A DNA stretch of 60,886 bases from positions 1-60,886 of the forward strand of contig DATBIK010000026.1 in NCBI GenBank assembly GCA_036556985.1, given 5' to 3'. The notes under the pieces are model-generated. The model did no database searches, was not told the DNA's origin, and saw nothing but the letters and a program-made list of their open reading frames with translations. Shown here piece after piece: positions 2,402-55,284 of this stretch. The position numbers and the translations under genes are program-made. Numbering within the stretch: position 1 is the first letter of the stretch; every line of letters starts with the position of its first letter. The DNA comes from Candidatus Limnocylindria bacterium (GTDB lineage: Bacteria > Chloroflexota > Limnocylindria > QHBO01).

Positions 2402-4354
2402 CTACCGCGCGTCGCGCATGGCCGGCACCAGCAGGCCGACCAGCCCGGCGGCGGCGATCATGGAGCCGCCCGCGATGAGCACGTTCGCCGGACCGATGAT
2501 CCCCGACAGCCATCCCGCCAGGCCCATGGACAGTGCCATGGCCCCGAAGGTCAGCGCCTGGCGGGTGGACACCACGCGGCCGAACAGCCGGGTGGGGGTG
2601 CGCTCCTGGAAGAGGGTGATCGTCGGCACCAGGTAGAGGAGGTTGGCGGCGCCGATGACGAAGAAGAGGCCGATGGCGATGTACGGGTCGGTCACCAGCC
2701 CGGCGGCGACCATGCCGGCCCCGAGCAGGATGAAGCCGGCGATGGTCATCGGTCCCTTTGGCGACCGCGTGAAGTACCCGCCGATGATCAGGCCACCCGC
2801 CACGCTGCCCAGGCCCAGGGCGCTCATCATCCAGCCGTAATTCTGCGGGAAGGGGATGACCGACTGGTCGAGCGTCTGCTGGGCGTAGAGGAATGCGCAC
2901 ACGATCTCCGCGCCGAACGCGAGCTGGGCGATGGTGCTCACGATGGTGTTCGCGAGGAGCTCGCGCTGGCCGGTGAGGAAGCGCCAGCCCTCGGCCATCT
3001 CGCGCCACACCGCGCGGACGCTGAACGGGACGACCTCCACCGCCTCCCTGGGCACGACCATGGCCGCGAGCAGCAGGGCCGATGCGACGTACGTCCCGGC
3101 GTCGAGCATGAAGGCCGCGGCGATCAGGCCGGCCAGCGCGGCCACGATGGCCGCCGCGACGGGTTGGCCCAGGACGTCGGCCAGTGTCTCGGACAGGGTG
3201 GAGGCGGAGTTCGCTGTGACGAGGTGCTCCTCGCGGACGATGGCCGGGACGATGGCCGTCTTGGCCGGGCGGAAGAGCAGGCCCACGGTCGCCACCAGGA
3301 AGGCGATGAAGAAGACGAGGGCCATGTGGACCTCGATGGCGAGCGGGACCAACAGGACGAGCCCGGCCCGCACGATGTCGCAGGCGATCATCGTGCGGCG
3401 GCGGTCCCAGCGGTCGACGAGGGCGCCGGCCAGTGGTCCGAGCAGGACGTTCGGCACGGCGGTCATGGCGAAGGCGATGCCCAGGTCCAGCGGCGTGCCG
3501 CGCTGCGTGACGAGCACGCCGAGCGCCACCTGGTGCACCCGGTCGCCGAAGAAGCTGATGAGCTGCCCCATCCACAGCAGGGAGAAGTTCCGGTTGCGGA
3601 CGAGGGCCAGGTACGGCGACTGCGGCCGCTCCTCGGGTTCGACCCGCTCGGCGGGGATGGCCGGCACGGTCGCCGCCGAGGCGCCCCCACCGGCCGGCCT
3701 GACGAGCGGTGGCGCGGCGGCGATCGCGGGCGCCGCGGCCGAGGCCATGACGGAGGCGGGGAACGGGTCGTTGGGCCGAGGACCGAACGTGACCAGCGGG
3801 CGCATCGGTGCGCCCGGGCGGGTCATGGTGTAGACGATGGTCCAGAACAGGCCAAGGGCCAGCAGCAGGTCGCCGATGCTGACCACGTCGCGGATGACGG
3901 GCAGCGGCAGCGGGACGACGTCGCCGAAGATCCCCCCGCGCGACACGAACTCGGCAACGGTGCTGGTGGGCATGAGGAAGTGGAACGCGTCGCCCGCCAC
4001 GGCATCGGGCTGGAAGCCGGCGGCCTCGAAGGCGCCCGGCCAGATCGGCATGCGACCGCCGTTGAGGAGGACGGCCAGGAAGTTCAGGCCGATGCCCACC
4101 GCCGCCACCTGGAGCCCGGGCACCCGCCAGTTGCCCCACAGGAACACGAAGATGAGGAAGTAGGCGGCCACGATCGCCCAGCCGATGGGCAGGTTGGTCG
4201 CGTCGTTCGTGCGCAGGAAGACGGCCCCGAAGCGGATGATCAGGGCGAGCAGCAGGACCCAGATCCAGCGGAGCTTCAGGTCTCCGAGACGGGGCAGGCC
4301 TCCTCCGGCCAGGGCGCCAACGATGAGCGCCAGGACGATGGTGCTAAGAAACAT
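2402..4354 (-). CDS. Fusion protein: N-terminal DUF5317-like membrane domain + C-terminal MFS transporter
   Basis: N-terminus MFLSTIVLALIVGALAGGGLPRLGDLKLRW...NGGRMPIW...VIRDVVSIGDLLLALGL recalls the DUF5317 family. A Pro/Ala linker follows, then an MFS core (NFSLLWMGQLISFFGD...GALVDRWDRRR) with 12 predicted TM helices. I prefer the ATG at 4354, 10 nt after the HD-GYP stop; the track ORF extends to 4447. Confidence 0.75.
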   Translation of the reverse strand: MFLSTIVLALIVGALAGGGLPRLGDLKLRWIWVLLLALIIRFGAVFLRTNDATNLPIGWAIVAAYFLIFVFLWGNWRVPGLQVAAVGIGLNFLAVLLNGGRMPIWPGAFEAAGFQPDAVAGDAFHFLMPTSTVAEFVSRGGIFGDVVPLPLPVIRDVVSIGDLLLALGLFWTIVYTMTRPGAPMRPLVTFGPRPNDPFPASVMASAAAPAIAAAPPLVRPAGGGASAATVPAIPAERVEPEERPQSPYLALVRNRNFSLLWMGQLISFFGDRVHQVALGVLVTQRGTPLDLGIAFAMTAVPNVLLGPLAGALVDRWDRRRTMIACDIVRAGLVLLVPLAIEVHMALVFFIAFLVATVGLLFRPAKTAIVPAIVREEHLVTANSASTLSETLADVLGQPVAAAIVAALAGLIAAAFMLDAGTYVASALLLAAMVVPREAVEVVPFSVRAVWREMAEGWRFLTGQRELLANTIVSTIAQLAFGAEIVCAFLYAQQTLDQSVIPFPQNYGWMMSALGLGSVAGGLIIGGYFTRSPKGPMTIAGFILLGAGMVAAGLVTDPYIAIGLFFVIGAANLLYLVPTITLFQERTPTRLFGRVVSTRQALTFGAMALSMGLAGWLSGIIGPANVLIAGGSMIAAAGLVGLLVPAMRDAR

Positions 4355-5798
4355 CGTCCGATGCGAGCATCGGCCTCGACTGACGGGACTCCGGCGGGCT
4401 CGGATCGGCAGCCGTGGCAGCGGCGGTGTCGGCTCCTTCGTCCGCATCCGACCCCGCGTCCGCCTGGGGCGGGCGGTCGCGCGGGTCCGGCGCGTGGAGC
4501 ATGGTGGGCAGCTCGTCCTCGCGGTCCGGCGGGCGGTCCAGGATCTCGCGCGGCAGGTTCACGAGCACCGGCACGATCTCCGGGTCGAACTGGATGCCGG
4601 TGTACTTCTCCAGCTCCGCCACCGCCTGCTCGTGGGTGAGGGGGGTCTTGCGGTACGGGCGGCTGGAGGTCATGGCCTCGTAGGCATCGGCGATGGTCAG
4701 GATGCGGGCCCCCAGCGGGATGTCGAGCGCCTCCACCCCGTCCGGGTAGCCGGAGCCGTTGAACCATTCGTGGTGGGCCTTGATCAGCGGCGCCTCCTCG
4801 GTGAGCTGCTTGGCCGGCGCCACGATCTCCGCACCGATGGTGGGGTGCTGGTTCATGAGGAAGCGCTCGTCCTTGTCGAGCGGCCCCTCCTTGAGGAGGA
4901 TGTTGTCGCGGATGCCGATCTTCCCCACGTCGTGGAGCAGGCCGGCCCACTGGATCTTCTCCACCTCGGGTTCCGGCAGCTTCATGACGCGCGCCATCTG
5001 TACGGAGATGTGGCTCACGCGGTTCGAGTGACCGCGGGTGTACTTGTCTCTCGCGTCGACGGCGTTGGCCAAGGCGCCGATGGTCTGCTCGAAGAGCTCC
5101 CTGGTCTCCACGTAGCGGTGGTACGCCAGGCGCGTCGTGAAGAGGGGGACGACGAAGAGGGGAGTGGCCCACCAGCCCACGCCATTGGGGAGGAGGAAGA
5201 TCTGCGCCATCAACCACGCGAGCGGCGCCAACCCCAACAGGCTTGCGAAGACCGCGCCTAGGTCTTGCGCCCAGACGGTTCGTATCGGGATGCCGGTCCG
5301 CGTGCTGACAGCCGCTAGGGCGAGGATGGCATTGGTCGCGTAGTAGACGCCGCTTCCAACAAGGAGGCCGAAGAATGTGAGGATCTCCGCCATCGGGGAT
5401 GCAAGGCCGATCGCTTCGCCACGCACGACCTCGAAAGCGGCTCCGCCAAGGACCACGGCGACAACAACGGCGGCATGGTTGAACAGAGTGCCGTACCAAG
5501 GGATCTGGCGACGGACCTCGCGATAGTCCGTGGTGCCAATCGCAGCGACTACCGCTGCAGCAAGAGGACCGCCTAGCACGAGGCTCGCAAGAAAGGGGGC
5601 AGCACTTACCGAGACGACCGTTCCGTGCGGAAGACGAACAGGCAGGGCGGCCCCGACGAGGGTGAGGCCTATCCAGAAGAGGATCCCTAGCAGGCCGCCG
5701 ATCTCATCCCGGAGCGGGAATAGAAAGGCCGCCGCCGCGGCAGCAACTGCGGCGGCGGCGGTACATGCGGCTATCAGAATCCGGACGTTCGAGTTCAC
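4344..5798 (-). CDS. Membrane-anchored HD-GYP domain protein (putative c-di-GMP phosphodiesterase)
   Basis: Multi-TM N-terminus, then HSNRVSHISV...LLHDVGKIGI...HHEWFNGSGYPDG (HD and GYP motifs). GTG start at 5798. Confidence 0.85.
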   Translation of the reverse strand: MNSNVRILIAACTAAAAVAAAAAAFLFPLRDEIGGLLGILFWIGLTLVGAALPVRLPHGTVVSVSAAPFLASLVLGGPLAAAVVAAIGTTDYREVRRQIPWYGTLFNHAAVVVAVVLGGAAFEVVRGEAIGLASPMAEILTFFGLLVGSGVYYATNAILALAAVSTRTGIPIRTVWAQDLGAVFASLLGLAPLAWLMAQIFLLPNGVGWWATPLFVVPLFTTRLAYHRYVETRELFEQTIGALANAVDARDKYTRGHSNRVSHISVQMARVMKLPEPEVEKIQWAGLLHDVGKIGIRDNILLKEGPLDKDERFLMNQHPTIGAEIVAPAKQLTEEAPLIKAHHEWFNGSGYPDGVEALDIPLGARILTIADAYEAMTSSRPYRKTPLTHEQAVAELEKYTGIQFDPEIVPVLVNLPREILDRPPDREDELPTMLHAPDPRDRPPQADAGSDADEGADTAAATAADPSPPESRQSRPMLASDDVS

Positions 5799-5846
5799 CC
5801 ATGCGTCACCCTAGCGGGGTGATGCCGGGGAGTCTATCACCCAGAC

Positions 5847-5945
5847 CTACCAGCCCTTGATGCTTGCGCCCCCGGCAATGGCCAAGGTAACCAAGCCCCC
5901 AAGGGTGGTCAGCAACGCCAGTAAGCGTCGTCGAAACGCATGCAT
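5847..5945 (-). CDS. Micro-ORF, 32-aa hydrophobic peptide MHAFRRRLLALLTTLGGLVTLAIAGGASIKGW
   Basis: Below the ORF-track size cutoff. ATG at 5945 has AGGAG 6 nt upstream. Basic N-terminus plus one TM-length hydrophobic stretch. Confidence 0.35.
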   Translation of the reverse strand: MHAFRRRLLALLTTLGGLVTLAIAGGASIKGW

Positions 5946-6216
5946 GCTTGACTCCTGGGACTGGTTACCAGCCCTTGATTGACTGTCTTGCCATCAGAAG
6001 GTGCCCTCTTCTGAACTGAAATAGACACAACCGACACACTCCGGTGACGGAACGGTCGGTTGCACTACATGCTCCCCGACGACCTAAGTGCCCACATTCG
6101 GTCGGCGGATCGATGCACCCTAGCTCTCAGCCAGTACCACGGCAGTACCAAAGTACTGGTCTGGAGGGAACTCTACTCGCCGACGAGGCGGGAAGTCAAT
6201 ACCCGCCCGGCAAGAG

Positions 6217-9200
6217 TCAATTATTCGTAGACTCCGCCGTCTGGCTTCTCGAGCCTAGTTCAGACATCAGATCCGCTATCCGGCTGGCTGGAGCCTCGGC
6301 CAGCTCATCCTCGATCCTCTTCGCGTATCGGATGATCACGTCCCTGGCTGCGACTTGGCGACCGGACTTCGCAAGGTGTTCGGCGAGCGCGATGTACGCG
6401 TCGTCGTCGAACTCATCCAAGTCGATGAGGGCACTGGCAGCTCGAATTCGCAGGTCCGGGCTCAAGTTCATCGATGTCGTGGCGAGGGGCAGGAGGAAAT
6501 CACGGACCTCGGCGTGGACGGCCATCTGAATTCGCGCTGCCCAGTCTTCATACCGCAGTTCGTTGAGGAACGGGCCGTGAATCATCCGGATGATCGCCGA
6601 CGCCCTCGCCGACGCTTGACGCCCGCCACTGGATACGTCTGCAGCCAGCACTCGGAACTCGCTGATATCGGTCCGCACCAACTCGGGGTTGAACTGAACC
6701 ACATCCACTGTGCTCATGACGTACTGGGGACTCGCGCCATCTCGATAGCTTCCGTCAATCGCACGCCTCAACTGAAACACGGTCTGATTGAGACTATTCA
6801 CGGCAGCACTGGGATCAGAATCTGGCCACATCATGTCCAGGACCATGTCGCGCGTAAGCGTTGAGCCTGAATACGCGACCAGTAGGCCAAGTAGCGTCCT
6901 CATTCGGCGCCGATCTACGGGAAGGACTGGCCCGTCCCAGCTACCTCGTCGCATGGTGAGCGCGCCGAACGATTGGACAAACAACAGCGGTGCTTGCTTC
7001 TGGACGAGCACTCGTCTCACGCCCGCTACATCTTCACCAGGAACCTCGCGAAGTAGGTTCTCGGTGTCGCGTGTGGCGTGGCGAACAATGGCGTCAAGCA
7101 CGAGTTCTCGCCTCCGTCCAGAGAGCGCCGGCAACACGTCGACCAAGACGGCCCGCCAACCCTCGGGGTCCGCGTTCGCGAGCGCGATCAGAACTGCGTC
7201 TCCTTCGCGGCTCGCGGCTAGGAGGCGAGCGATCTTGGTGTAGCGACGCAACCACCACCGAAGAGGCCGAAGTGCGCGCATAGCGATGAGCGACTTGAGG
7301 ATCTCGATTGAGCTGCGAGCGCTCTTCGTCGAATGCTCTAGGCCAAGAGCCAGTACTTTCGCGCGTGCAACAGTGACGGAGTAGGTCGCTCCTCGAGCGT
7401 CCCACGCGGTGAGCCGGTCTGTCGCCGTGAGGCACTCCCCCAAGCATCCAGAAGCATGCTTCGCAATGGCATCCGCAGGGGTGAGCATTGGCTCCAATCG
7501 CGGGTCGGTCTCTGCGCTGGAGAGCGCTCGATGTTCCCGCGCAATCTCATCCGCGCCGGCCTCGCTCAGGTAGAGGCACTCAATGAGCAGTGCGCCTACC
7601 AGATGTGCCGTCGGTCCGAGCTCATCGGGGCGCGACAGCACAGATCGCAATAGCTCGATCGCTGCGCGGAAGCGACCGTTGTGCGCGAAAACGAGCGCCA
7701 TTCCGTATTGCGCTTCGGCATGGGGTCGCGGCCACGGCGCAGTTCGCACGATTGCCATTCGGGCGACTGCCTCGGCCCGAGCCGCCTGATCAGCCGCTAA
7801 CAGGGAAGCCACCAGCTCGGCATTGTCGGCAAACGGGCCTTTGGGGACATCTCCCCAATAGCGAGCCGCCAGATCTAGGCTTCGGACGCTGTCAGCAATG
7901 TCGCCTACTTGCCGCTGGGCGCTCCCGAGATTGTGCAGTCCGATAGCGGCGAAATGTTCCCACCCTCGGGCCTTGGCCTCGACAACTATTCTGCGGAACT
8001 CATGGATCACTTCGTCGAACGAAGCCTCGATCCATCCCGCGGTAATTGCGAGATTGCCGCGAAGGCGAAGGCGCGTGGCCTCTGCACTCTCCGGTGCAAG
8101 CGCGAGGCCGTCACGTGCCATCTGGACGGCCTCAGTGATCTTGCCGTAATTCGCAAGCACGGTGCTGAGTTTCGAGCAGGCAAGCGCCTCCATTCGCTTG
8201 TCACCTTTCCGTTCGAAGAAGGCACGAGCGCGCCGAAGTGCGACTAGCGCACCTTCCCACTCCCCGCGCATCCCTTGGACCTCTCCGAGCAAGAGCGACA
8301 GTCGCGCATTTTCGTGGGACGTCTTCCGGGGCAGGACCGCGAGCCACTCGTCAATCAGGCTCAAGCGACCCTCGGATGCGACATCCTCGCCGTAACGCGC
8401 GATTAGCCGCGCAGCCTGTGGATGGAGGCCGGCCCTGAGGTAGTGGTGGATTGCTTCCGGCCATTCCCGGTTTGTCTCGTAGTAGGACGCCGCATGGATG
8501 TGCAGTCCTGCGATCTCTCCCTCAGATCGCTCTGTCATCAAGTGTCGCTCGAGGAAATCGCGGAACAACCCGTGGAAACGGTACCGCGCATCCACCGTGT
8601 CAAGGCGATAGGTGAACAGGCCCCTTTGCTCCAGTTCCGCCAGGAGCTTCGCTCCGTCGTCTGCGCCAGTAAGTCGCTCGGCGAGCTCCGGCGCAATCTG
8701 CTGGAGGATTGAGGTCGCGAGCAGGAAGCTTCTAGTGCGATCGTCCTGCTGGTCCAGAACCTCCTCGGCCAAGAATGCGAATAGGTCGCTGTCGCTGGCG
8801 GCGGTGATGGACTCGATGAAGATTCGCCGCTCCTCCCGCGTCTTTCGCTCGCGCAGCGACACCTCCACGAGCTGGAGCGATGCAGCCCACCCCTCTGTCC
8901 GGCGCTCGAGCTCGATGAGTTCGGTGGGATCGAGCGGATCGTTGTAGATGTCGCGGAACAGCTCCTCGATCTCGCGGTCGTTGAAGCGAAGGGCATCGGT
9001 CCGCATCTCGGCATAGCCGCCGTGGGTCTTGAACCGGGCGAACTGCAGGTGCGGCTTGGCACGCGACAGGAAGATGAAGCGACAGGTGGGCGGGGCGTCG
9101 CGCAGGATCTGGTTCCAGAGGCCACGGACCTCGGTGACCGAGGCCACGAACTGCCAGTCGTCGATGATGAAGGTGCACGGCTCCGTCAGCCGCTCGTACA

Positions 9201-9645
9201 TCTCGGCCAGGAGGTAGGCCGCGACACCCGGCCGTGAGGATCCCGGGCCGCCGAGCTGTTCGAGCATCGAGTGCGCCCGGCGCCCGAAGCCGGGGTGTCG
9301 TTGGCTGATGGCCTCGATGAGGTAACTGATGTGGAGCGACCAGTCTCGGTCGTTGCGGTCGAGCTTGTACCAGTAGCACGGGAACTCGACCTCGCGCTCC
9401 CACTGCCACAGGAGGGTCGTCTTGCCATAGCCGGCATCTGCGGCGATGACGACCGCTCGGCAGTCGGCGGCCTCGTTCAGCCAATCGATGAGGCGCGCGC
9501 GCCGCAACGTGGGGGTCACGTAGTGAGGCGACGTGACCTTGTTGTGGATCAGGGGATAGACGTACTGGATGTCCGACAATCGACTGCCCCGTCGACACGC
9601 TGCGCGACAACAGTTACGCCGCGAGGCGCGCGCTCCGCACCGCAC
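6217..9645 (-). CDS. STAND (MalT-like) NTPase - TPR - C-terminal SARP (winged helix + BTAD) regulator
   Basis: N-terminus aligns by eye with the MalT NOD (PLIHNKVTSP...VVIAADAGYGKTTLLWQW; hhhhDD box TFIIDDWQ). Central TPR-like helical repeats. The C-terminus has an OmpR/SARP winged helix (LLGLLVAYSGSTLTRDMVLDMMWPDSDPSAAVNSLNQTVFQLRRAI) plus BTAD (DDAYIALAEHLAKSGRQVAARDVIIRYAKRIEDEL). The true start may lie a little downstream of 9645. Confidence 0.8.
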   Translation of the reverse strand: MRCGARASRRNCCRAACRRGSRLSDIQYVYPLIHNKVTSPHYVTPTLRRARLIDWLNEAADCRAVVIAADAGYGKTTLLWQWEREVEFPCYWYKLDRNDRDWSLHISYLIEAISQRHPGFGRRAHSMLEQLGGPGSSRPGVAAYLLAEMYERLTEPCTFIIDDWQFVASVTEVRGLWNQILRDAPPTCRFIFLSRAKPHLQFARFKTHGGYAEMRTDALRFNDREIEELFRDIYNDPLDPTELIELERRTEGWAASLQLVEVSLRERKTREERRIFIESITAASDSDLFAFLAEEVLDQQDDRTRSFLLATSILQQIAPELAERLTGADDGAKLLAELEQRGLFTYRLDTVDARYRFHGLFRDFLERHLMTERSEGEIAGLHIHAASYYETNREWPEAIHHYLRAGLHPQAARLIARYGEDVASEGRLSLIDEWLAVLPRKTSHENARLSLLLGEVQGMRGEWEGALVALRRARAFFERKGDKRMEALACSKLSTVLANYGKITEAVQMARDGLALAPESAEATRLRLRGNLAITAGWIEASFDEVIHEFRRIVVEAKARGWEHFAAIGLHNLGSAQRQVGDIADSVRSLDLAARYWGDVPKGPFADNAELVASLLAADQAARAEAVARMAIVRTAPWPRPHAEAQYGMALVFAHNGRFRAAIELLRSVLSRPDELGPTAHLVGALLIECLYLSEAGADEIAREHRALSSAETDPRLEPMLTPADAIAKHASGCLGECLTATDRLTAWDARGATYSVTVARAKVLALGLEHSTKSARSSIEILKSLIAMRALRPLRWWLRRYTKIARLLAASREGDAVLIALANADPEGWRAVLVDVLPALSGRRRELVLDAIVRHATRDTENLLREVPGEDVAGVRRVLVQKQAPLLFVQSFGALTMRRGSWDGPVLPVDRRRMRTLLGLLVAYSGSTLTRDMVLDMMWPDSDPSAAVNSLNQTVFQLRRAIDGSYRDGASPQYVMSTVDVVQFNPELVRTDISEFRVLAADVSSGGRQASARASAIIRMIHGPFLNELRYEDWAARIQMAVHAEVRDFLLPLATTSMNLSPDLRIRAASALIDLDEFDDDAYIALAEHLAKSGRQVAARDVIIRYAKRIEDELAEAPASRIADLMSELGSRSQTAESTNN

Positions 9646-9722
9646 GGCCCGGCGAGGATAGGGCCGGACCGATTATCAGGCGCTTATCGGCCGATTACCA
9701 GACCGGAGGAGAGGCGACTCGG

Positions 9723-11666
9723 TCAGGCAGGCGATTCCGCGGTGGGTCGCCGCGCTGCCGTCCGACGCCGGACCTGCTGCGTGGCCGGTCCCGCCACGCG
9801 CCGCCAGGCGGCGTCTTCGGCCCGGAACATTGCGAGCGCCAGGCGGCGGACGGCCTGCCGCTGTCCGGCGGTGAACTCGATTCCCACCATGGCGGCACCG
9901 TCCGGAAGGTCGGAAACCCGACGGGTGACGCACTGCAGGCCCACGAGCACGCCGTCGATGTCCAGCTCCAGCATCGGCTCGGGATCGACCTGCGCCGGCG
10001 GCTTGGGGAGCACGACCTGCGCGCCGGTCAGCGAGAGGTCCAGGGCGATCGCGCGGGTGCCCGAGAGGGTTCCCGGGATGCGGGTGTCGAAGCGCACGCT
10101 CGCGCGGCGCTCGCCGGCGAAGCGACCCGCTCGGATGCGCGAGATCGCGGCGATCAGGAGGCCGAGGTTGATGGCGGCGAAGAGGCCCGCGCCGACCGCC
10201 GCACCCGGCTCCTCGTAGCGGAAGGAGGTGACGCCCAGCGCGGTCAGCACCAGCCACGCGATCGCCATCGTGGACGCCGCCGCCAGGATCAGGTGCAGGC
10301 GAGGGACGTGCGCCCCTCGGCCCGCCGCGCGGCCCTTGGGAGTGACCCGGAAGGGGACGCTGGTGTCGCGGCGGAGGACTGTGAGGGTGGCCGGCAGCAC
10401 TGCCGGCATCCGAAGCACCTCGAACAGCATGGAGAGGACCGGCGGATAGTGGCCCCGCGCCAGGAGGCGCAGCGCCACGAACTGCGCGCCAAGGGTGAGG
10501 ACGAACAGCGGGCCGAAGACCGACGCCGGCGCCGCGATCGGAGAAGCGGCGGTAAAGATCACGGCCACGGGAATGACCATGTAGGCCAGCATGCGCCACG
10601 AGTCGAACCAGGCGAACAGGGTCGTCATGAACGCCACTCGCTGTCCGAACGAAAGGCCCCGGCCGAACAGTGGGTTCTCCATTCGCAGCACCTGCATGGC
10701 GCCGGTCGCCCACCGGCGGCGCTGGGTCAGGTAGGCGTTCGCATCGGCAGGAGCGAGGCCGTTGGCGAGGATCTCGTTGTGGAAGACGCCCTTCCAGCCG
10801 CGCCGGTACATCCGGATCGTGGTGTGGATGTCCTCCGTCACCGATTCGGTCGCCACTCCGCCGACTGATCGCAGCGCTTCGACCCGAACCAGGGCCGAAG
10901 TCCCGCACCAGAAGGGTGCGGACCATCGGTTCTTCGCCGGCGCGATCACGCGGTAGAACACCGACTCCTCGTTGTAGACGTCTTCGCCTCGTCGCGCGTG
11001 CTCGAACGACTCGAGGTTGTAGAAGGACTGCGGGGTCTGGACCAGCGCCACGGCCGGGTCCTCGAAGTACCCGAGGGTGTTCGCGAGGAAGTCGCGGGTC
11101 GGCACATGATCGGCGTCGAGGACCGCGATCACGTCGGCCCGGACCACCTGGAGGGCGTGGTTCAGGTTGCCGGCCTTGGCGTGCCGTCGCTCCTCACGGG
11201 CAAGGTATCGGGCGCCGAGGTCTTGAGCCAGCTGCTGGACTTCCGGCCGGTTCCCGTCGTCGAGCACCCAGGTCTCGTGCGCCGGTTTCAACGCGACGGA
11301 GGCGGCCACGGTGGGCAACAGCACCTCGACCGGCTCGTTGTAGGTGGGGATGAGAACGGCGACCCGCAGCGTGCCGCGGGAGCGAACCGGCGTCGGAGTC
11401 GGTCGCTCTCCGGAGTGCCAGAGCGCGAACGTGTAGAGCACCAGGCCGAACGCGTTGTGAATCTCCACGGCGAACAGCGGCAGCGCGAGCCACCAGACGC
11501 CGAGATCGATGGTCGACGTCGCCCGCCAGGTGAGGTACACCGCGGTGATGCCGATGGCGAGCACGGCTACCGCGCGAATGAGCAGCCGCCGCGCCGCGGT
11601 CTCGTGAGGAAGACTGCCCACCGGGATGGCGGGCAGCGTGACGCCGGGAGGTGCGGTCCGGTGCAT
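9723..11666 (-). CDS. Processive family-2 glycosyltransferase with C-terminal PilZ domain (BcsA/cellulose-synthase-like)
   Basis: IPTYNEP, VLDADH, TEDIHT and QRRRWATG (QxxRW) motifs with flanking TM helices. C-terminal RRASVRF...DLSLTGAQV PilZ signature. Confidence 0.85.
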   Translation of the reverse strand: MHRTAPPGVTLPAIPVGSLPHETAARRLLIRAVAVLAIGITAVYLTWRATSTIDLGVWWLALPLFAVEIHNAFGLVLYTFALWHSGERPTPTPVRSRGTLRVAVLIPTYNEPVEVLLPTVAASVALKPAHETWVLDDGNRPEVQQLAQDLGARYLAREERRHAKAGNLNHALQVVRADVIAVLDADHVPTRDFLANTLGYFEDPAVALVQTPQSFYNLESFEHARRGEDVYNEESVFYRVIAPAKNRWSAPFWCGTSALVRVEALRSVGGVATESVTEDIHTTIRMYRRGWKGVFHNEILANGLAPADANAYLTQRRRWATGAMQVLRMENPLFGRGLSFGQRVAFMTTLFAWFDSWRMLAYMVIPVAVIFTAASPIAAPASVFGPLFVLTLGAQFVALRLLARGHYPPVLSMLFEVLRMPAVLPATLTVLRRDTSVPFRVTPKGRAAGRGAHVPRLHLILAAASTMAIAWLVLTALGVTSFRYEEPGAAVGAGLFAAINLGLLIAAISRIRAGRFAGERRASVRFDTRIPGTLSGTRAIALDLSLTGAQVVLPKPPAQVDPEPMLELDIDGVLVGLQCVTRRVSDLPDGAAMVGIEFTAGQRQAVRRLALAMFRAEDAAWRRVAGPATQQVRRRTAARRPTAESPA

Positions 11667-44413: not shown

Positions 44414-45082
44414 CTAAGCCTTCTCGTCCCCCTCGGTGGCGGCATCGATCGTCTCCGGGGCGGGAACCTCGCCCTCTGCCGGCTCCGCCTCCTCCGCCGG
44501 GCTGCCGTTCGTGCCTTCGCGCTGGAAGAGCGGTACCCAGTCGCCCGCCTCGTCGCGGGCGCGCGTGGCGGCATCCCGCGCCTTGTCGGCGATCTCGTCA
44601 CGCATTTCGCGCCCCGGCTTGGGGGTGGTCAGCATCGCGACGATGGCGCCGGCCGCCGCCCCGACGAGCAGCCCGAGGAAGAACGCCAGCCAGTGGCGCC
44701 GCTCGCGCTGCTTGCGGATGCCGAGCCGCGCAGCCGCGTCCTCGGCGAGCTGCTGGCCTGCGGGAATTGCGGCACCGGCCGCGCTCATCGCCACCGTCCG
44801 CCGCTTCCACAGGTCGCGAAGCGCCGGGCTCAGCTCCTTCGTCCAGGTGCGCCGGGACCACTTCATCGCGTCCTTGCCGGCGCGGCGGGCAGCCTTCTCG
44901 GCATCCCTGCGCTGCGGCTCGGAGTCGTGCCAGGCATCGCTGGCGCGCGCCGAAACGGTCTCGGTCGCCTCCGCCACCGCGGCGGCGAGCTCGCGACCGC
45001 GCCGCGCGATCTGGTCGGTCACGTCTGCCTCGAGCATCCTCTCGACGACGGATCGGACCCGCGTGGAGACCTCATCGGCCAT
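44414..45082 (-). CDS. YtxH-like general stress protein (single TM, helical hydrophilic domains)
   Basis: FLGLLVGAAAGAIVAMLTTPKPGREMRDEIADKARD matches the YtxH signature. ATG 45082 has GAGGAGG 5 nt upstream. Confidence 0.7.
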   Translation of the reverse strand: MADEVSTRVRSVVERMLEADVTDQIARRGRELAAAVAEATETVSARASDAWHDSEPQRRDAEKAARRAGKDAMKWSRRTWTKELSPALRDLWKRRTVAMSAAGAAIPAGQQLAEDAAARLGIRKQRERRHWLAFFLGLLVGAAAGAIVAMLTTPKPGREMRDEIADKARDAATRARDEAGDWVPLFQREGTNGSPAEEAEPAEGEVPAPETIDAATEGDEKA

Positions 45083-45115
45083 GTCGTCCTCCTCGTTCAC
45101 TCGGGCAGGGGTCGG

Positions 45116-45132
45116 TGCAGAAAGTATGCCAC
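45116..45132 (-). promoter_or_regulatory. Sigma-54-type -24/-12 promoter (P5) upstream of the ytxH-like gene
   Basis: Minus strand reads GTGGCATACTTTCTGCA. GG and GC are at consensus spacing. It lies 33 nt upstream of ATG 45082. Confidence 0.6.
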
Positions 45133-45273
45133 TCGAAGGCGGTGCCCGCCCGGCGCGTCCCAACGGGCGGAGCCGGTTGCCGGCCGGCCGCCAGCGCAGC
45201 GTGCCCGGCACCCGGCGGGCACCGTCCACAGCATGGCGCCTGGGCATCATCGGCCGCTTACCGGCGGCTTACC

Positions 45274-45279
45274 TATACT
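45274..45279 (+). promoter_or_regulatory. -10 hexamer TATACT, 6 nt upstream of the holB GTG (leaderless-type)
   Basis: ccTATACTcagccgGTG. Confidence 0.45.
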
Positions 45280-45285
45280 CAGCCG

Positions 45286-46395
45286 GTGTCCGTCATCGAG
45301 GCTGAATCGGGCTTCCTGAGCCTTGGGCAACCCGTCGCGCGGCGCGTCCTCCAGCAGGCCGCCGCCAGCAATCGGCTGGGCACGACGCTCCTCGTCCACG
45401 GCCCGCGCGGGGCGGGCAAGGGGGCATTCGTCGACGACGTGCTCGCACTGCTGCTGTGCGCGGACGCCGACGTCGCACGCCGCCCCTGCAATGCGTGTCG
45501 GGCCTGTCGCGACGCGCGGGCTCGGGCCCACCCGGACCTCGTCATCGGCTCGCCGGAGCGCTGGCGCGAGGAGCGCTCGACCGGCGAGAGCATCGTGGCC
45601 GCCGCCCGGCGCTGGCTCCTGGCCAGCGCCGGCACCCCCATCGCCGGGGCGCGCCGCGTCATCCTGGTCGAGGGGGTCGACCGTGCCGGCGAGGCCGTCC
45701 AGAACGCCCTGCTCAAGGGGCTCGAGGAACCGTCGAGCCGGCAGCTGTTCGTCCTCGTCGCCGACGACATCGGCCGCGTCCTGCCCACCATCGTCTCCCG
45801 CGCCCAGGGGCTCCGCGTCGGCGCCGTGCCGCGCGCGGAGCTCGCCGCGTGGCTCGTCGACCGCGAGCGACTGCCCGCCGACCAGGCCGATGCGCTGGCC
45901 CGCATCGCCGACGGACTCCCCGGACGCGCCATCGGCTTCGCTCGGCAGCCAGAGCTCGTCGAGTGGCGTCGTCGCACGCAGGCCGAGCTGCTGGCCCTCC
46001 TCGAGCGCGGACGCGCGGACCGCTTCACCACCGTCCGCGACCTCCTCGACGCCGCCCCACCGACCGGGCCGGCGGTCGTCGAGGAGCCCGCCGCGTCCCC
46101 GGACGACGGCGCCCCGGCCCGCCCCGCGGCCGCGGCTCAGCGCGCCGCCGCGCTGGCGATCGTCGATGCCTGGCAGGGGCTCGTGCGCGACCTGCTCGTG
46201 GCGGCCGCGGGCCGCCCGGCCTATGCCCCTTCGACACAGCTGCTGCCCGACCTCGAGGACGCCGCACGGCGCCTGCGACCGGCGGCGCTCGTGGCGTTCG
46301 CCGCGCTCCTCGAGCGCATCCGGGACGGCATTCTCGAGAACGCCGCGCCGCGGCTGGCCCTGGAGCGGGCGATGCTCAGCTGGCCGGACGTGTGA
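45286..46395 (+). CDS. holB: DNA polymerase III delta' subunit
   Basis: LLVHGPRGAGKGAF...CNACRACRDA (zinc module)...VILVEGVDRAGEAVQNALLKGLEEP...TIVSRAQ. GTG 45286 is in frame within track ORF 44767..46395. Confidence 0.8.
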   Translation: MSVIEAESGFLSLGQPVARRVLQQAAASNRLGTTLLVHGPRGAGKGAFVDDVLALLLCADADVARRPCNACRACRDARARAHPDLVIGSPERWREERSTGESIVAAARRWLLASAGTPIAGARRVILVEGVDRAGEAVQNALLKGLEEPSSRQLFVLVADDIGRVLPTIVSRAQGLRVGAVPRAELAAWLVDRERLPADQADALARIADGLPGRAIGFARQPELVEWRRRTQAELLALLERGRADRFTTVRDLLDAAPPTGPAVVEEPAASPDDGAPARPAAAAQRAAALAIVDAWQGLVRDLLVAAAGRPAYAPSTQLLPDLEDAARRLRPAALVAFAALLERIRDGILENAAPRLALERAMLSWPDV

Positions 46396-46406
46396 GCCTG
46401 GAGCGA

Positions 46407-55208: not shown

Positions 55209-55284
55209 TGGCGCGCCGGACAGGATTCGAACCTGCGACCTTCGGCTCCGGAGGCCGACGCTCTATCCACTGAGCTACCGGCGC
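55209..55284 (-). tRNA. tRNA-Arg (anticodon CCG)
   Basis: The minus strand folds by eye as a cloverleaf: GCGCCGG-TA-GCTC-AGTGGATA-GAGC-G-TCGGC-CTCCGGA-GCCGA-AGGTC-GCAGG-TTCGAAT-CCTGT-CCGGCGC-G-CCA. The CCA end is encoded. Confidence 0.9.

Follow-up and report, generated by a model that had tools for sequence, protein, structure and literature searches.

Positions 5799-9722 of a 60,886-nt (60.9-kb) stretch of DNA from Candidatus Limnocylindria bacterium, the whole of which is termed the window here and serves as the reference for this region, encode on the minus strand a large regulator in which a MalT-type STAND NTPase and a TPR-like superhelix precede a C-terminal SARP module. Our analysis indicates that this protein is probably a signal-dependent activator of the STAND class that is carried in a vertically inherited core locus, regulates its own gene and is tied to the physiology of cyclic di-GMP (c-di-GMP). 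Three features of the locus are new here: a SARP-type box in the regulator's own promoter, a leader that combines a riboswitch with mini-open reading frames (mini-ORFs) and gives abundant RNA, and a trough in the GC content of third codon positions (GC3) that extends across the lineage.

A MalT-clade switch with a C-terminal SARP module

The region is filled by a single minus-strand ORF (6217..9645), which gives 1142 amino acids (aa) from its first GTG, in agreement with a sequence-only reading of this DNA that had described essentially one protein of that length. When the protein is aligned with 41 homologues and the DNA ahead of the gene is compared in eight loci, the conserved start falls on the TTG at 9579 (MSDIQYVYP...), a codon that is ATG in two relatives (loci L005 and L008); residue numbers below follow the 1142-aa ORF. 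The N-terminal part is matched by the NCBIfam MalT model PRK04841 over aa 32-525 (E 1.2e-79, below the equivalog cutoff at 268 versus 537 bits) and by the MalT structure PDB 8bob over aa 32-452 (E 1.1e-45), which is also the top Foldseek match. The Walker A motif reads AADAGYGKTT (aa 68-77) and the Walker B motif FIIDDW (aa 159-164), and G72, K75, T76, D162 and D163, together with the recognition-helix residues, are invariant in 42 sequences. In addition, the winged-helix family PF25873 (WHD_MalT) is recorded on homologues. NB-ARC was not found in the regulator, the best NTPase matches being MalT, AAA_16, AAA_22 and NPHP3_N. The middle part is matched weakly by TPR_2, TPR_1 and TPR_12, and TPR_MalT (PF17874) is recorded on homologues. 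Its AlphaFold2 model forms a continuous helical superhelix with pLDDT mostly 85-97, and the second Foldseek match is the STAND-TPR structure 6mfv. This superhelix is presumed to be the sensor domain.

The C-terminal module was called as an OmpR-type winged helix plus a BTAD domain in the sequence-only reading. When the last 307 residues are scanned alone, the first call passes the Pfam cutoff (Trans_reg_C, 27.4 bits against 26.2; 23.2 bits in the full protein) and the second falls short of it (BTAD, 19.8-20 bits against 22.1). BTAD (PF03704) is recorded on many orthologues, and it reaches 29-58 bits in more distant proteins of the same domain order. The AlphaFold2 model of aa 880-1142 has a pLDDT of 95.7 and a pTM of 0.89, with the strands and helices of the winged helix above 95, and it gives six significant PDB matches, namely EmbR (2fez, 2ff4 A/B) and AfsR (8k60 I/J, 8hvr I). 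The EmbR and AfsR alignments each span 262-270 columns and cover both the winged helix and BTAD. EmbR 2fez aligns with E 2e-8 over 262 columns (TMq 0.61; E 1e-3 by sequence), and the AfsR structures align with E 1e-7 to 6e-7 over about 265 columns. A GerE/LuxR helix-turn-helix (HTH) was not found in the C-terminal 307 aa at E values up to 10. Profile, sequence and structure matches thus agree with the earlier description of a MalT-like NOD, TPR-like repeats and a complete C-terminal SARP module.

The regulator is best described as a MalT/LAL-type protein with a SARP module in place of the LuxR HTH, and not as a permuted AfsR. With MalT of Escherichia coli and the LAL proteins it shares the NOD clade (the PRK04841 match covers MalT positions 2-490), a similar size and the order of NOD, helical-repeat sensor and C-terminal DNA-binding domain. 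By comparison, the DNA-binding part is a SARP module of ~260 aa where MalT and LAL proteins carry the LuxR/GerE HTH, and the protein stands below the MalT equivalog cutoff and outside any maltose-regulon context. AfsR and the other large SARPs of Streptomyces likewise combine SARP, STAND NTPase and TPR in one polypeptide of ~1000 aa, the SARP fold of the regulator matches that of AfsR (8k60, 8hvr), and the candidate site described below shares the geometry of SARP sites. However, the AfsR order of SARP-NB-ARC-TPR is reversed here and the NTPase belongs to the MalT clade instead of NB-ARC, which argues for an independent fusion over a permutation of AfsR; the host is a member of Chloroflexota instead of Actinomycetota, and no biosynthetic gene cluster surrounds the gene. 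The C-terminal module is matched best, by structure as well as by sequence, by EmbR of Mycobacterium tuberculosis, but the SARP module of EmbR is N-terminal and is accompanied by an FHA domain, with no NTPase.

A search of the C-terminal module against 1.84 billion cluster representatives returned 9133 matches at E <= 1e-3 and 676 at E <= 1e-10, and the module lies at the C-terminal end in all of the best 150 (150/150), many of which are proteins of 1075-1165 aa with only 28-36% identity. Among eight distant proteins of the same order, an N-terminal AAA_16/AAA_22 P-loop domain is present in seven, a C-terminal BTAD in all eight (29-58 bits) and Trans_reg_C in seven. Members are named automatically as 'MalT/DNA-binding SARP family' by JGI and as 'BTAD domain-containing putative transcriptional regulator' by NCBI. 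By comparison, a 2024 review places the SARP domain at the N-terminus in every class, whether small, medium, large or SARP-LAL (PMC10972967), which bears out the earlier statement that established large SARPs have the opposite order, and we found no paper in the open-access literature on a C-terminal SARP, the reversed order or this protein family. The NOD-TPR-SARP order is therefore widespread and automatically annotated, yet absent from the published SARP classes. It had been thought unusual: this does not hold for databases, where several divergent families of ~1100 aa share it, and holds for the described SARP classes, so that the architecture is common without having been characterized. 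It is a widespread, unstudied variant of known STAND transcription factors.

STAND NTPases with large helical-repeat sensors also serve in antiviral defence, and in phylogenies the STAND clades that act in defence lie scattered among those that do not (PMC13581612), which would allow the protein to be an Avs-type anti-phage sensor with a DNA-binding effector, as the sequence-only reading had raised. Several results make this highly improbable. A PADLOC scan of the regulator and its neighbours gave only a generic TPR model (E 4.6e-4), the NOD is nearest to MalT, a transcription factor, and the gene occupies a fixed housekeeping locus that is found once per genome in 79 species representatives. 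Furthermore, the output is a complete SARP activator module, and the domain scan of the regulator contained no nuclease, protease, TIR or similar effector domain, in line with the earlier remark that the output is DNA-binding rather than an obvious effector.

An inherited core locus with a lineage-wide drop in GC3

A protein search with the regulator gave more than 1679 matches. All of the best 120 are full-length proteins (about 1090-1147 aa, 56-83% identity), and the named ones among them come from metagenome-assembled genomes (MAGs) of Candidatus Limnocylindria or Chloroflexota. A scan of one genome per species yielded 79 loci, each from a different species-representative MAG, with the regulator at 51-83% identity, in the same chromosomal position and found once in each of these 79 genomes. 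Nearly all are labelled Limnocylindria/Chloroflexota; the contigs of L016, L060, L073 and L083 carry the MAG labels Mycobacterium, Steroidobacteraceae or Coriobacteriia and are probably mis-binned. Contig look-ups and tblastn give the gene order as purH, glpX, HPPK (on the opposite strand), the STAND-SARP gene, a gap of 420-620 bp, a MASE9-HD-GYP phosphodiesterase gene and a DUF5317-MFS membrane protein gene (Table 1). The purH-glpX-HPPK part is found upstream of the regulator in most loci, and in each locus whose DNA continues past the regulator the HD-GYP and DUF5317-MFS genes follow. The DUF5317-MFS gene overlaps the end of the HD-GYP gene, and the called genes in relatives overlap by ~11 nt. 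Large Guanylate_cyc-AAA_16(-TPR) proteins adjoin the locus in some relatives (L005 13697-17104; L006 632-3610 and 15503-18907).

Table 1 Features of the locus and its neighbours, in window coordinates
Feature	Position	Strand	Details
GT2-PilZ (BcsA-like) gene	9723..11666	minus	CelA E 8e-113, PilZ E 6.5e-7
Candidate SARP box	9669..9697	minus	three direct heptamers, 4-nt spacers, 11-nt period
-10-like hexamer TATCCT	9655..9660	minus	8 nt after third heptamer
STAND-SARP regulator gene	6217..9579	minus	1120 aa from conserved TTG start
MalT-clade NOD (P-loop NTPase, helical and winged-helix domains)	8290..9552	minus	aa 32-452
TPR-like all-helical superhelix	6994..8289	minus	aa 453-884
C-terminal SARP module	6220..6993	minus	OmpR-type winged helix ~aa 885-992, BTAD ~aa 993-1140
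Riboswitch-operon promoter	6170..6220	minus	-35 TTGACT (6199-6194), 18-nt spacer, -10 TAGAGT (6175-6170)
c-di-GMP-II riboswitch aptamer (predicted)	6045..6129	minus	RF01786, 56.4 bits (gathering 53.5), positions 1-84/84
Candidate expression platform	6014..6061	minus	AACCGAC (6061-6055, aptamer core) can pair with GTCGGTT (6035-6029); T-rich tract after
Mini-ORF1, MARQSIKGW-stop	5965..5994	minus	conserved in aligned loci
Mini-ORF2, 32-aa hydrophobic peptide MHAFRRRLLALLTTLGGLVTLAIAGGASIKGW-stop	5847..5945	minus	AGGAG Shine-Dalgarno
MASE9-HD-GYP phosphodiesterase gene	4344..5798	minus	GTG start 5798; HD_5 E 4e-37, MASE9 weak
DUF5317-MFS membrane protein gene	2402..4447	minus	Pfam DUF5317 E 1e-25, MFS_1 E 4e-30

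The sequence-only reading identified the flanking genes correctly as HD-GYP and GT2-PilZ (HD_5 and CelA-like matches, Table 1), and it took the region to be an acquired island that interrupts this pair. Our comparison of gene order does not support an interruption. Among the loci examined, GT2-PilZ lies between HPPK and the STAND promoter only in the window and in two others (L080, 2910-4775; L045, 987-2135), and the closest relative (L009, 83% identity) lacks GT2-PilZ and has the STAND gene. The lineage-variable insert is GT2-PilZ, and the STAND gene is not the insert; since the STAND and HD-GYP genes are always adjacent where downstream DNA exists and GT2-PilZ is variable, the regulator interrupts no pair of c-di-GMP genes. 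As to GT2-PilZ itself, it appears as a c-di-GMP-responsive synthase recruited to a c-di-GMP locus.

The composition on which the island proposal had rested is real. The reading had estimated 58-62% GC across 5800-9700 against 70-77% in the flanks; the computed GC is 0.624 for 5799-9722 and 0.710 for the remaining window, where the lowest value among non-overlapping windows of the same length is 0.673. Windows of 500 bp across 5751-9000 have a GC of 0.588-0.638, compared with ~0.70 elsewhere, and this interval holds the lowest 2-kb GC bins of the entire window. The GC3 of the regulator gene is 0.73, and that of the other 43 ORFs is 0.917 +/- 0.035 with a minimum of 0.82 (z = -5.3). The codons CTA, TTG, GAT and TAT are over-used 4- to 20-fold in the regulator relative to the flanking genes, and AAT is also far commoner. 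The trough is a gradient and not a block, and it spans about 8750 to 5350 instead of 9722 to 5799. GC3 is 0.83-0.90 in codons 1-250 of the STAND gene and 0.61-0.73 in codons 300-1142, the 418-bp gap between the STAND stop and the HD-GYP start has a GC of 0.59, and the HD-GYP gene rises from a GC3 of 0.63-0.66 in its first ~150 codons to 0.9-0.99 thereafter. The fuzzy left boundary and the low-GC 5' end of the HD-GYP gene noticed earlier are thus confirmed, and the right edge proves to be graded too.

The same trough is present in the orthologues. In 68 loci, the GC3 of the flanking genes is 0.92, the regulator beyond codon 250 is lower by a mean of 0.21 (range 0.08-0.31), its first 250 codons are only 0.056 below the flank, and the step falls at the same place, codon ~270-320, in all 68 species. 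Four-fold degenerate sites of the low-GC part differ at 68-70% even from the closest relative, which amounts to saturation when set against the ~72% that we estimate by hand for unrelated sequence of the same base composition, and GC at these sites (GC4) is still 0.65-0.69 in both partners compared. Because the trough is common to orthologues and the synonymous sites are saturated with GC4 unchanged, the lower GC is a stationary, lineage-wide property of the region and not a trace of foreign origin. A recent island, in which a STAND gene from a lower-GC donor had split a c-di-GMP gene pair, would account for the atypical GC3 and codon usage of the regulator, but we consider it most unlikely. 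The same position, neighbours and GC3 trough recur in 68-79 species at 51-83% identity, the composition is unchanged in spite of the saturation, and the closest relative is without GT2-PilZ and not without the STAND gene. Furthermore, there is no tRNA within 45 kb of the locus (the sole tRNA of the window lies at 55209), and no bracketing direct repeats, integrase-like ORF or mobility gene were found near the regulator in the window. Positions 5799-9722 are part of a vertically inherited core locus of Candidatus Limnocylindria, and are not an island.

Two accounts of the trough were considered and rejected. Codon accuracy fails because GC3 is 0.69-0.70 beyond codon 250 in every class of residue conservation; codons 23-250 have a GC3 of 0.87-0.95 whatever the residue conservation, and the window-level correlation of conservation with GC3 (rho 0.51) reflects only the step near codon 300. 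A constraint at the nucleotide level on the low-GC part, such as a hidden RNA or an antisense gene, is excluded by the saturated four-fold sites. A weaker regional force favouring GC, or selection for rare codons in a regulator of low abundance, would fit as the cause.

A candidate SARP box in the regulator's own promoter

Upstream of the regulator, three direct heptamers with an 11-nt period, TAATCGG (9697-9691), TAAGCGC (9686-9680) and TAATCGG (9675-9669), form a candidate SARP box; the window reads TAATCGG ccga TAAGCGC ctga TAATCGG tccggccc TATCCT (9697-9655). No -35 consensus is found 17 nt upstream of TATCCT, a position that the box occupies. The box has one exact match in the window against 0.01 expected. 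Its core, cGGTAAt-N4-TGATAATCGG, is nearly invariant in 43 aligned loci and is followed after 7-8 nt by a hexamer of the form TAnnnT that varies (TATCCT, TACCCT, TACAGT, TAGAGT), and a weight matrix places the box upstream of the regulator in about 75/79 loci. In addition, this DNA, which lies ~100 nt ahead of the start codon, is conserved whether HPPK or GT2-PilZ is the upstream neighbour. In published SARP sites, direct repeats recur every 11 or 22 bp and 8 bp separate the 3' repeat from the -10 element (PMC10936776), and three heptamers with 4-nt spacers overlapping the -35 position form the classical SARP site (PMC10972967); the candidate box has this same geometry. With three phased heptamers 8 nt from a -10 in the gene's own promoter, positive autoregulation of the regulator is therefore predicted, and the box suggests as much in sequence terms.

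The conserved block also contains TGATAAT, and we regard it as possible, though doubtful, that the 'box' amounts to no more than a strong sigma-70 promoter whose -10 is GATAAT, that the true targets lie elsewhere and that the adjacency of HD-GYP has no regulatory meaning. GATAAT agrees with TATAAT at 5/6 positions, weaker matches containing TGATAAT lie just upstream of glpX in L028 and L040, and the first heptamer is only moderately conserved. However, TGATAATCGG is near-invariant (about 2 bits per position) and the TAnnnT 7-8 nt downstream varies as a -10 does, sharing its form with the -10 of the leader promoter described below. Furthermore, GTAAK recurs exactly 11 nt upstream, and a second three-repeat box in the same phase is found upstream of a YtxH-like gene both in the window and in L089.

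The second box is weaker (45274-45243, minus strand; GGTAAGC cgcc GGTAAGC ggcc GATGATG, 11-nt period, 0.03 matches expected in the window) and lies ~160 nt upstream of the YtxH-like gene (44414-45085). It is the only other match in the weight-matrix scan of the window, in which neither the HD-GYP nor the GT2-PilZ promoter showed a box. A similar box precedes the homologue of the YtxH-like gene in L089 (about 1301-1340) and not that in L090, and the gene is a possible member of the regulon; just three loci came from a search for its relatives, too small a set for judging membership. Near this gene, 45300-46400 has a strong codon-phase signal and contains no ORF with a Pfam match, and the mechanically picked ORF at 44767-46395 has an odd GC content at second codon positions (0.65).

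A riboswitch leader and a model for the locus

The 418-bp gap between the regulator and the HD-GYP gene contains a promoter of its own, a c-di-GMP-II riboswitch and two mini-ORFs, the last two of which the sequence-only reading had missed within 5799-9722. The promoter was found by consensus scan and is conserved in eight aligned loci. The stretch from its -10 to the aptamer includes a palindrome or hairpin, CCAGTAC-N15-GTACTGG (6131-6159, minus strand), which has three copies of GTACT, is kept in most of the eight loci and could be an operator or the 5' stem of the RNA. A second TTGACT at 6220-6215, which overlaps the STAND stop codon, lies 21 nt upstream of the -35, and an upstream TTGAC is found 21-22, 31-34 or 40-41 nt from the -35 TTGAC in about 51/66 loci. 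These spacings are near whole helical turns and could mark a phased activator site, one unlike the heptamer box.

The regulator might thus activate the riboswitch/HD-GYP operon directly through the phased TTGAC repeats at 6220-6194, which would make protein and RNA sensors work in series on the turnover of c-di-GMP and would be compatible with autoregulation. In favour of such control, regulator and operon are adjacent in every locus with downstream DNA, the conservation of the upstream TTGAC does not depend on the stop codon, and the spacing found in those loci recalls SARP repeats, which may be 11 or 22 bp apart. On the other hand, TTGAC is unlike the GTAAT/ATAAT repeats of the regulator's own box, and the upstream repeat is missing in 10/66 loci. 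As the proximal repeat forms a perfect -35 and is paired with a good -10, the leader promoter may do without an activator. Because the weight matrix finds no box there, direct control of the HD-GYP operon is possible but not supported by sequence, and we consider it unlikely.

The aptamer is assigned as a c-di-GMP-II riboswitch by score and covariation, with ligand binding and switching predicted. It also exceeds the gathering score in L001, L003 and L008 and is nearly invariant in eight loci, and a whole-leader profile matches all 70 loci with downstream DNA. In 65 loci, pairs 30:62, 32:60, 33:58 and 34:56 of the aptamer hairpin stem each occur as 3-4 standard pair types. Compared with the Rfam c-di-GMP-II consensus, the outer P1 is poorly paired in the window (five non-standard pairs), and compared with c-di-GMP-II riboswitches elsewhere, the leader runs on for ~250 nt and carries two conserved mini-ORFs ahead of the first long gene. 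A c-di-GMP-II-GAG variant riboswitch is present elsewhere in L006 (4128-4212, 66.7 bits) ahead of a 157-aa gene. Downstream of the aptamer, the 7-bp AACCGAC/GTCGGTT helix of the candidate expression platform is invariant in 65 loci and so gives no covariation for or against its pairing; a weak terminator-like call overlaps it.

An invariant hairpin, CAGAAG-AGGGCAC-CTTCTG (6013-5995), precedes mini-ORF1, which has 8-9 codons in 63/64 loci and ends in KGW in 52/64. A second hairpin and the Shine-Dalgarno sequence precede mini-ORF2, whose peptide ends AGGASIKGW-stop. Mini-ORF2 is found in 55 loci, is mostly 32 aa long with a (K/R)GW end in 42/55, and is called as a 32-aa gene in L009; its third-position variation indicates that it is translated, and a Pfam scan matched it to no family. 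Both mini-ORFs end in an exact 14-nt repeat, ATCAAGGGCTGGTA (plus strand 5966-5979 and 5848-5861). To judge from these sequences, they could be arrest peptides or encode a small membrane protein.

RNA from soil bears on both transcription units. The regulator gene is covered by low-depth RNA contigs in two soil metatranscriptomes. In the soil metatranscriptome X22, a contig of depth 135.8 agrees exactly with the window over 5771-6056 and has an Illumina adapter joined at 5771, and pieces of the HD-GYP coding region and of the regulator have depths of 2-3.5 and 2-5, respectively; these positions have an even depth of 7.4 in a DNA run (X1). Leader RNA including both mini-ORFs is thus ~40-60x above coding RNA in this one run, with contig depth as a crude measure. 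Depths of up to about 3100 over the aptamer are inflated by k-mers shared between species, as are those of DNA, and the leader-RNA contigs break in the part conserved between species. The X22 transcripts read through the AACCGAC/GTCGGTT helix. The data suggest a leader transcript that is stable or attenuated and whose discrete end lies 27 nt inside the HD-GYP ORF. The metatranscriptome X19 gave no leader coverage at 95% likeness.

These observations can be assembled into a model for the locus by analogy with MalT and AfsR. Binding of a ligand or partner to the TPR-like domain would release the MalT-type NOD, permitting ATP-dependent opening and oligomerization. Neighbouring SARP modules would then occupy adjacent 11-nt-phased repeats in place of a -35, and would recruit RNA polymerase. 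As the best candidate target is the regulator's own promoter, the first effect would be to raise transcription of the regulator itself. In the neighbouring leader, binding of c-di-GMP would tie up AACCGAC in the aptamer and make the downstream helix less favourable, so that more c-di-GMP would give more read-through into a c-di-GMP phosphodiesterase and close a feedback loop. Because a separately promoted HD-GYP operon invariably follows the regulator, the regulator most likely belongs to the same c-di-GMP-related physiology as this operon, as far as conserved adjacency can tell.

Several points weigh against this model. BTAD stands under the Pfam cutoff in this protein, though above it in relatives, and the regulator's ligand remains hypothetical. 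The link between protein and box is one that we infer, TGATAAT could provide a strong -10 (GATAAT) and thereby turn the box into an ordinary promoter, and the weight-matrix scan gives no match at the promoter of the HD-GYP leader. Moreover, site-level conservation does not predict GC3 in either region and offers no account of the regional trough.

A bolder proposal, which we put forward as a speculation with modest prospects, is that the whole class carries a two-tier c-di-GMP unit. STAND-SARP would set transcription, its switch sensing a c-di-GMP-related or envelope signal, and the riboswitch with the KGW-stop mini-ORFs, possibly ribosome-arrest or small-membrane-protein elements, would set what share of the very abundant leader RNA runs on into the HD-GYP/MFS genes. 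Low synonymous GC over about 3.4 kb would then be selected, kept for example by rare-codon-limited translation or by a local requirement of DNA or RNA.

SARPs have been studied almost only as N-terminal modules of antibiotic regulators in actinomycetes, and here a MalT-clade STAND switch uses the module as its C-terminal output. The gene belongs to the core of an abundant, uncultured class of soil Chloroflexota and comes with a ready candidate operator, and it lends itself readily to the question of how a SARP dimer tethered from the other side is controlled by a NOD. In addition, a composition outlier that arose without horizontal transfer is a caution for island callers. Finally, a riboswitch, mini-ORFs and an abundant leader ahead of a phosphodiesterase suggest feedback control of c-di-GMP, a kind of signalling that is unexplored in this phylum.

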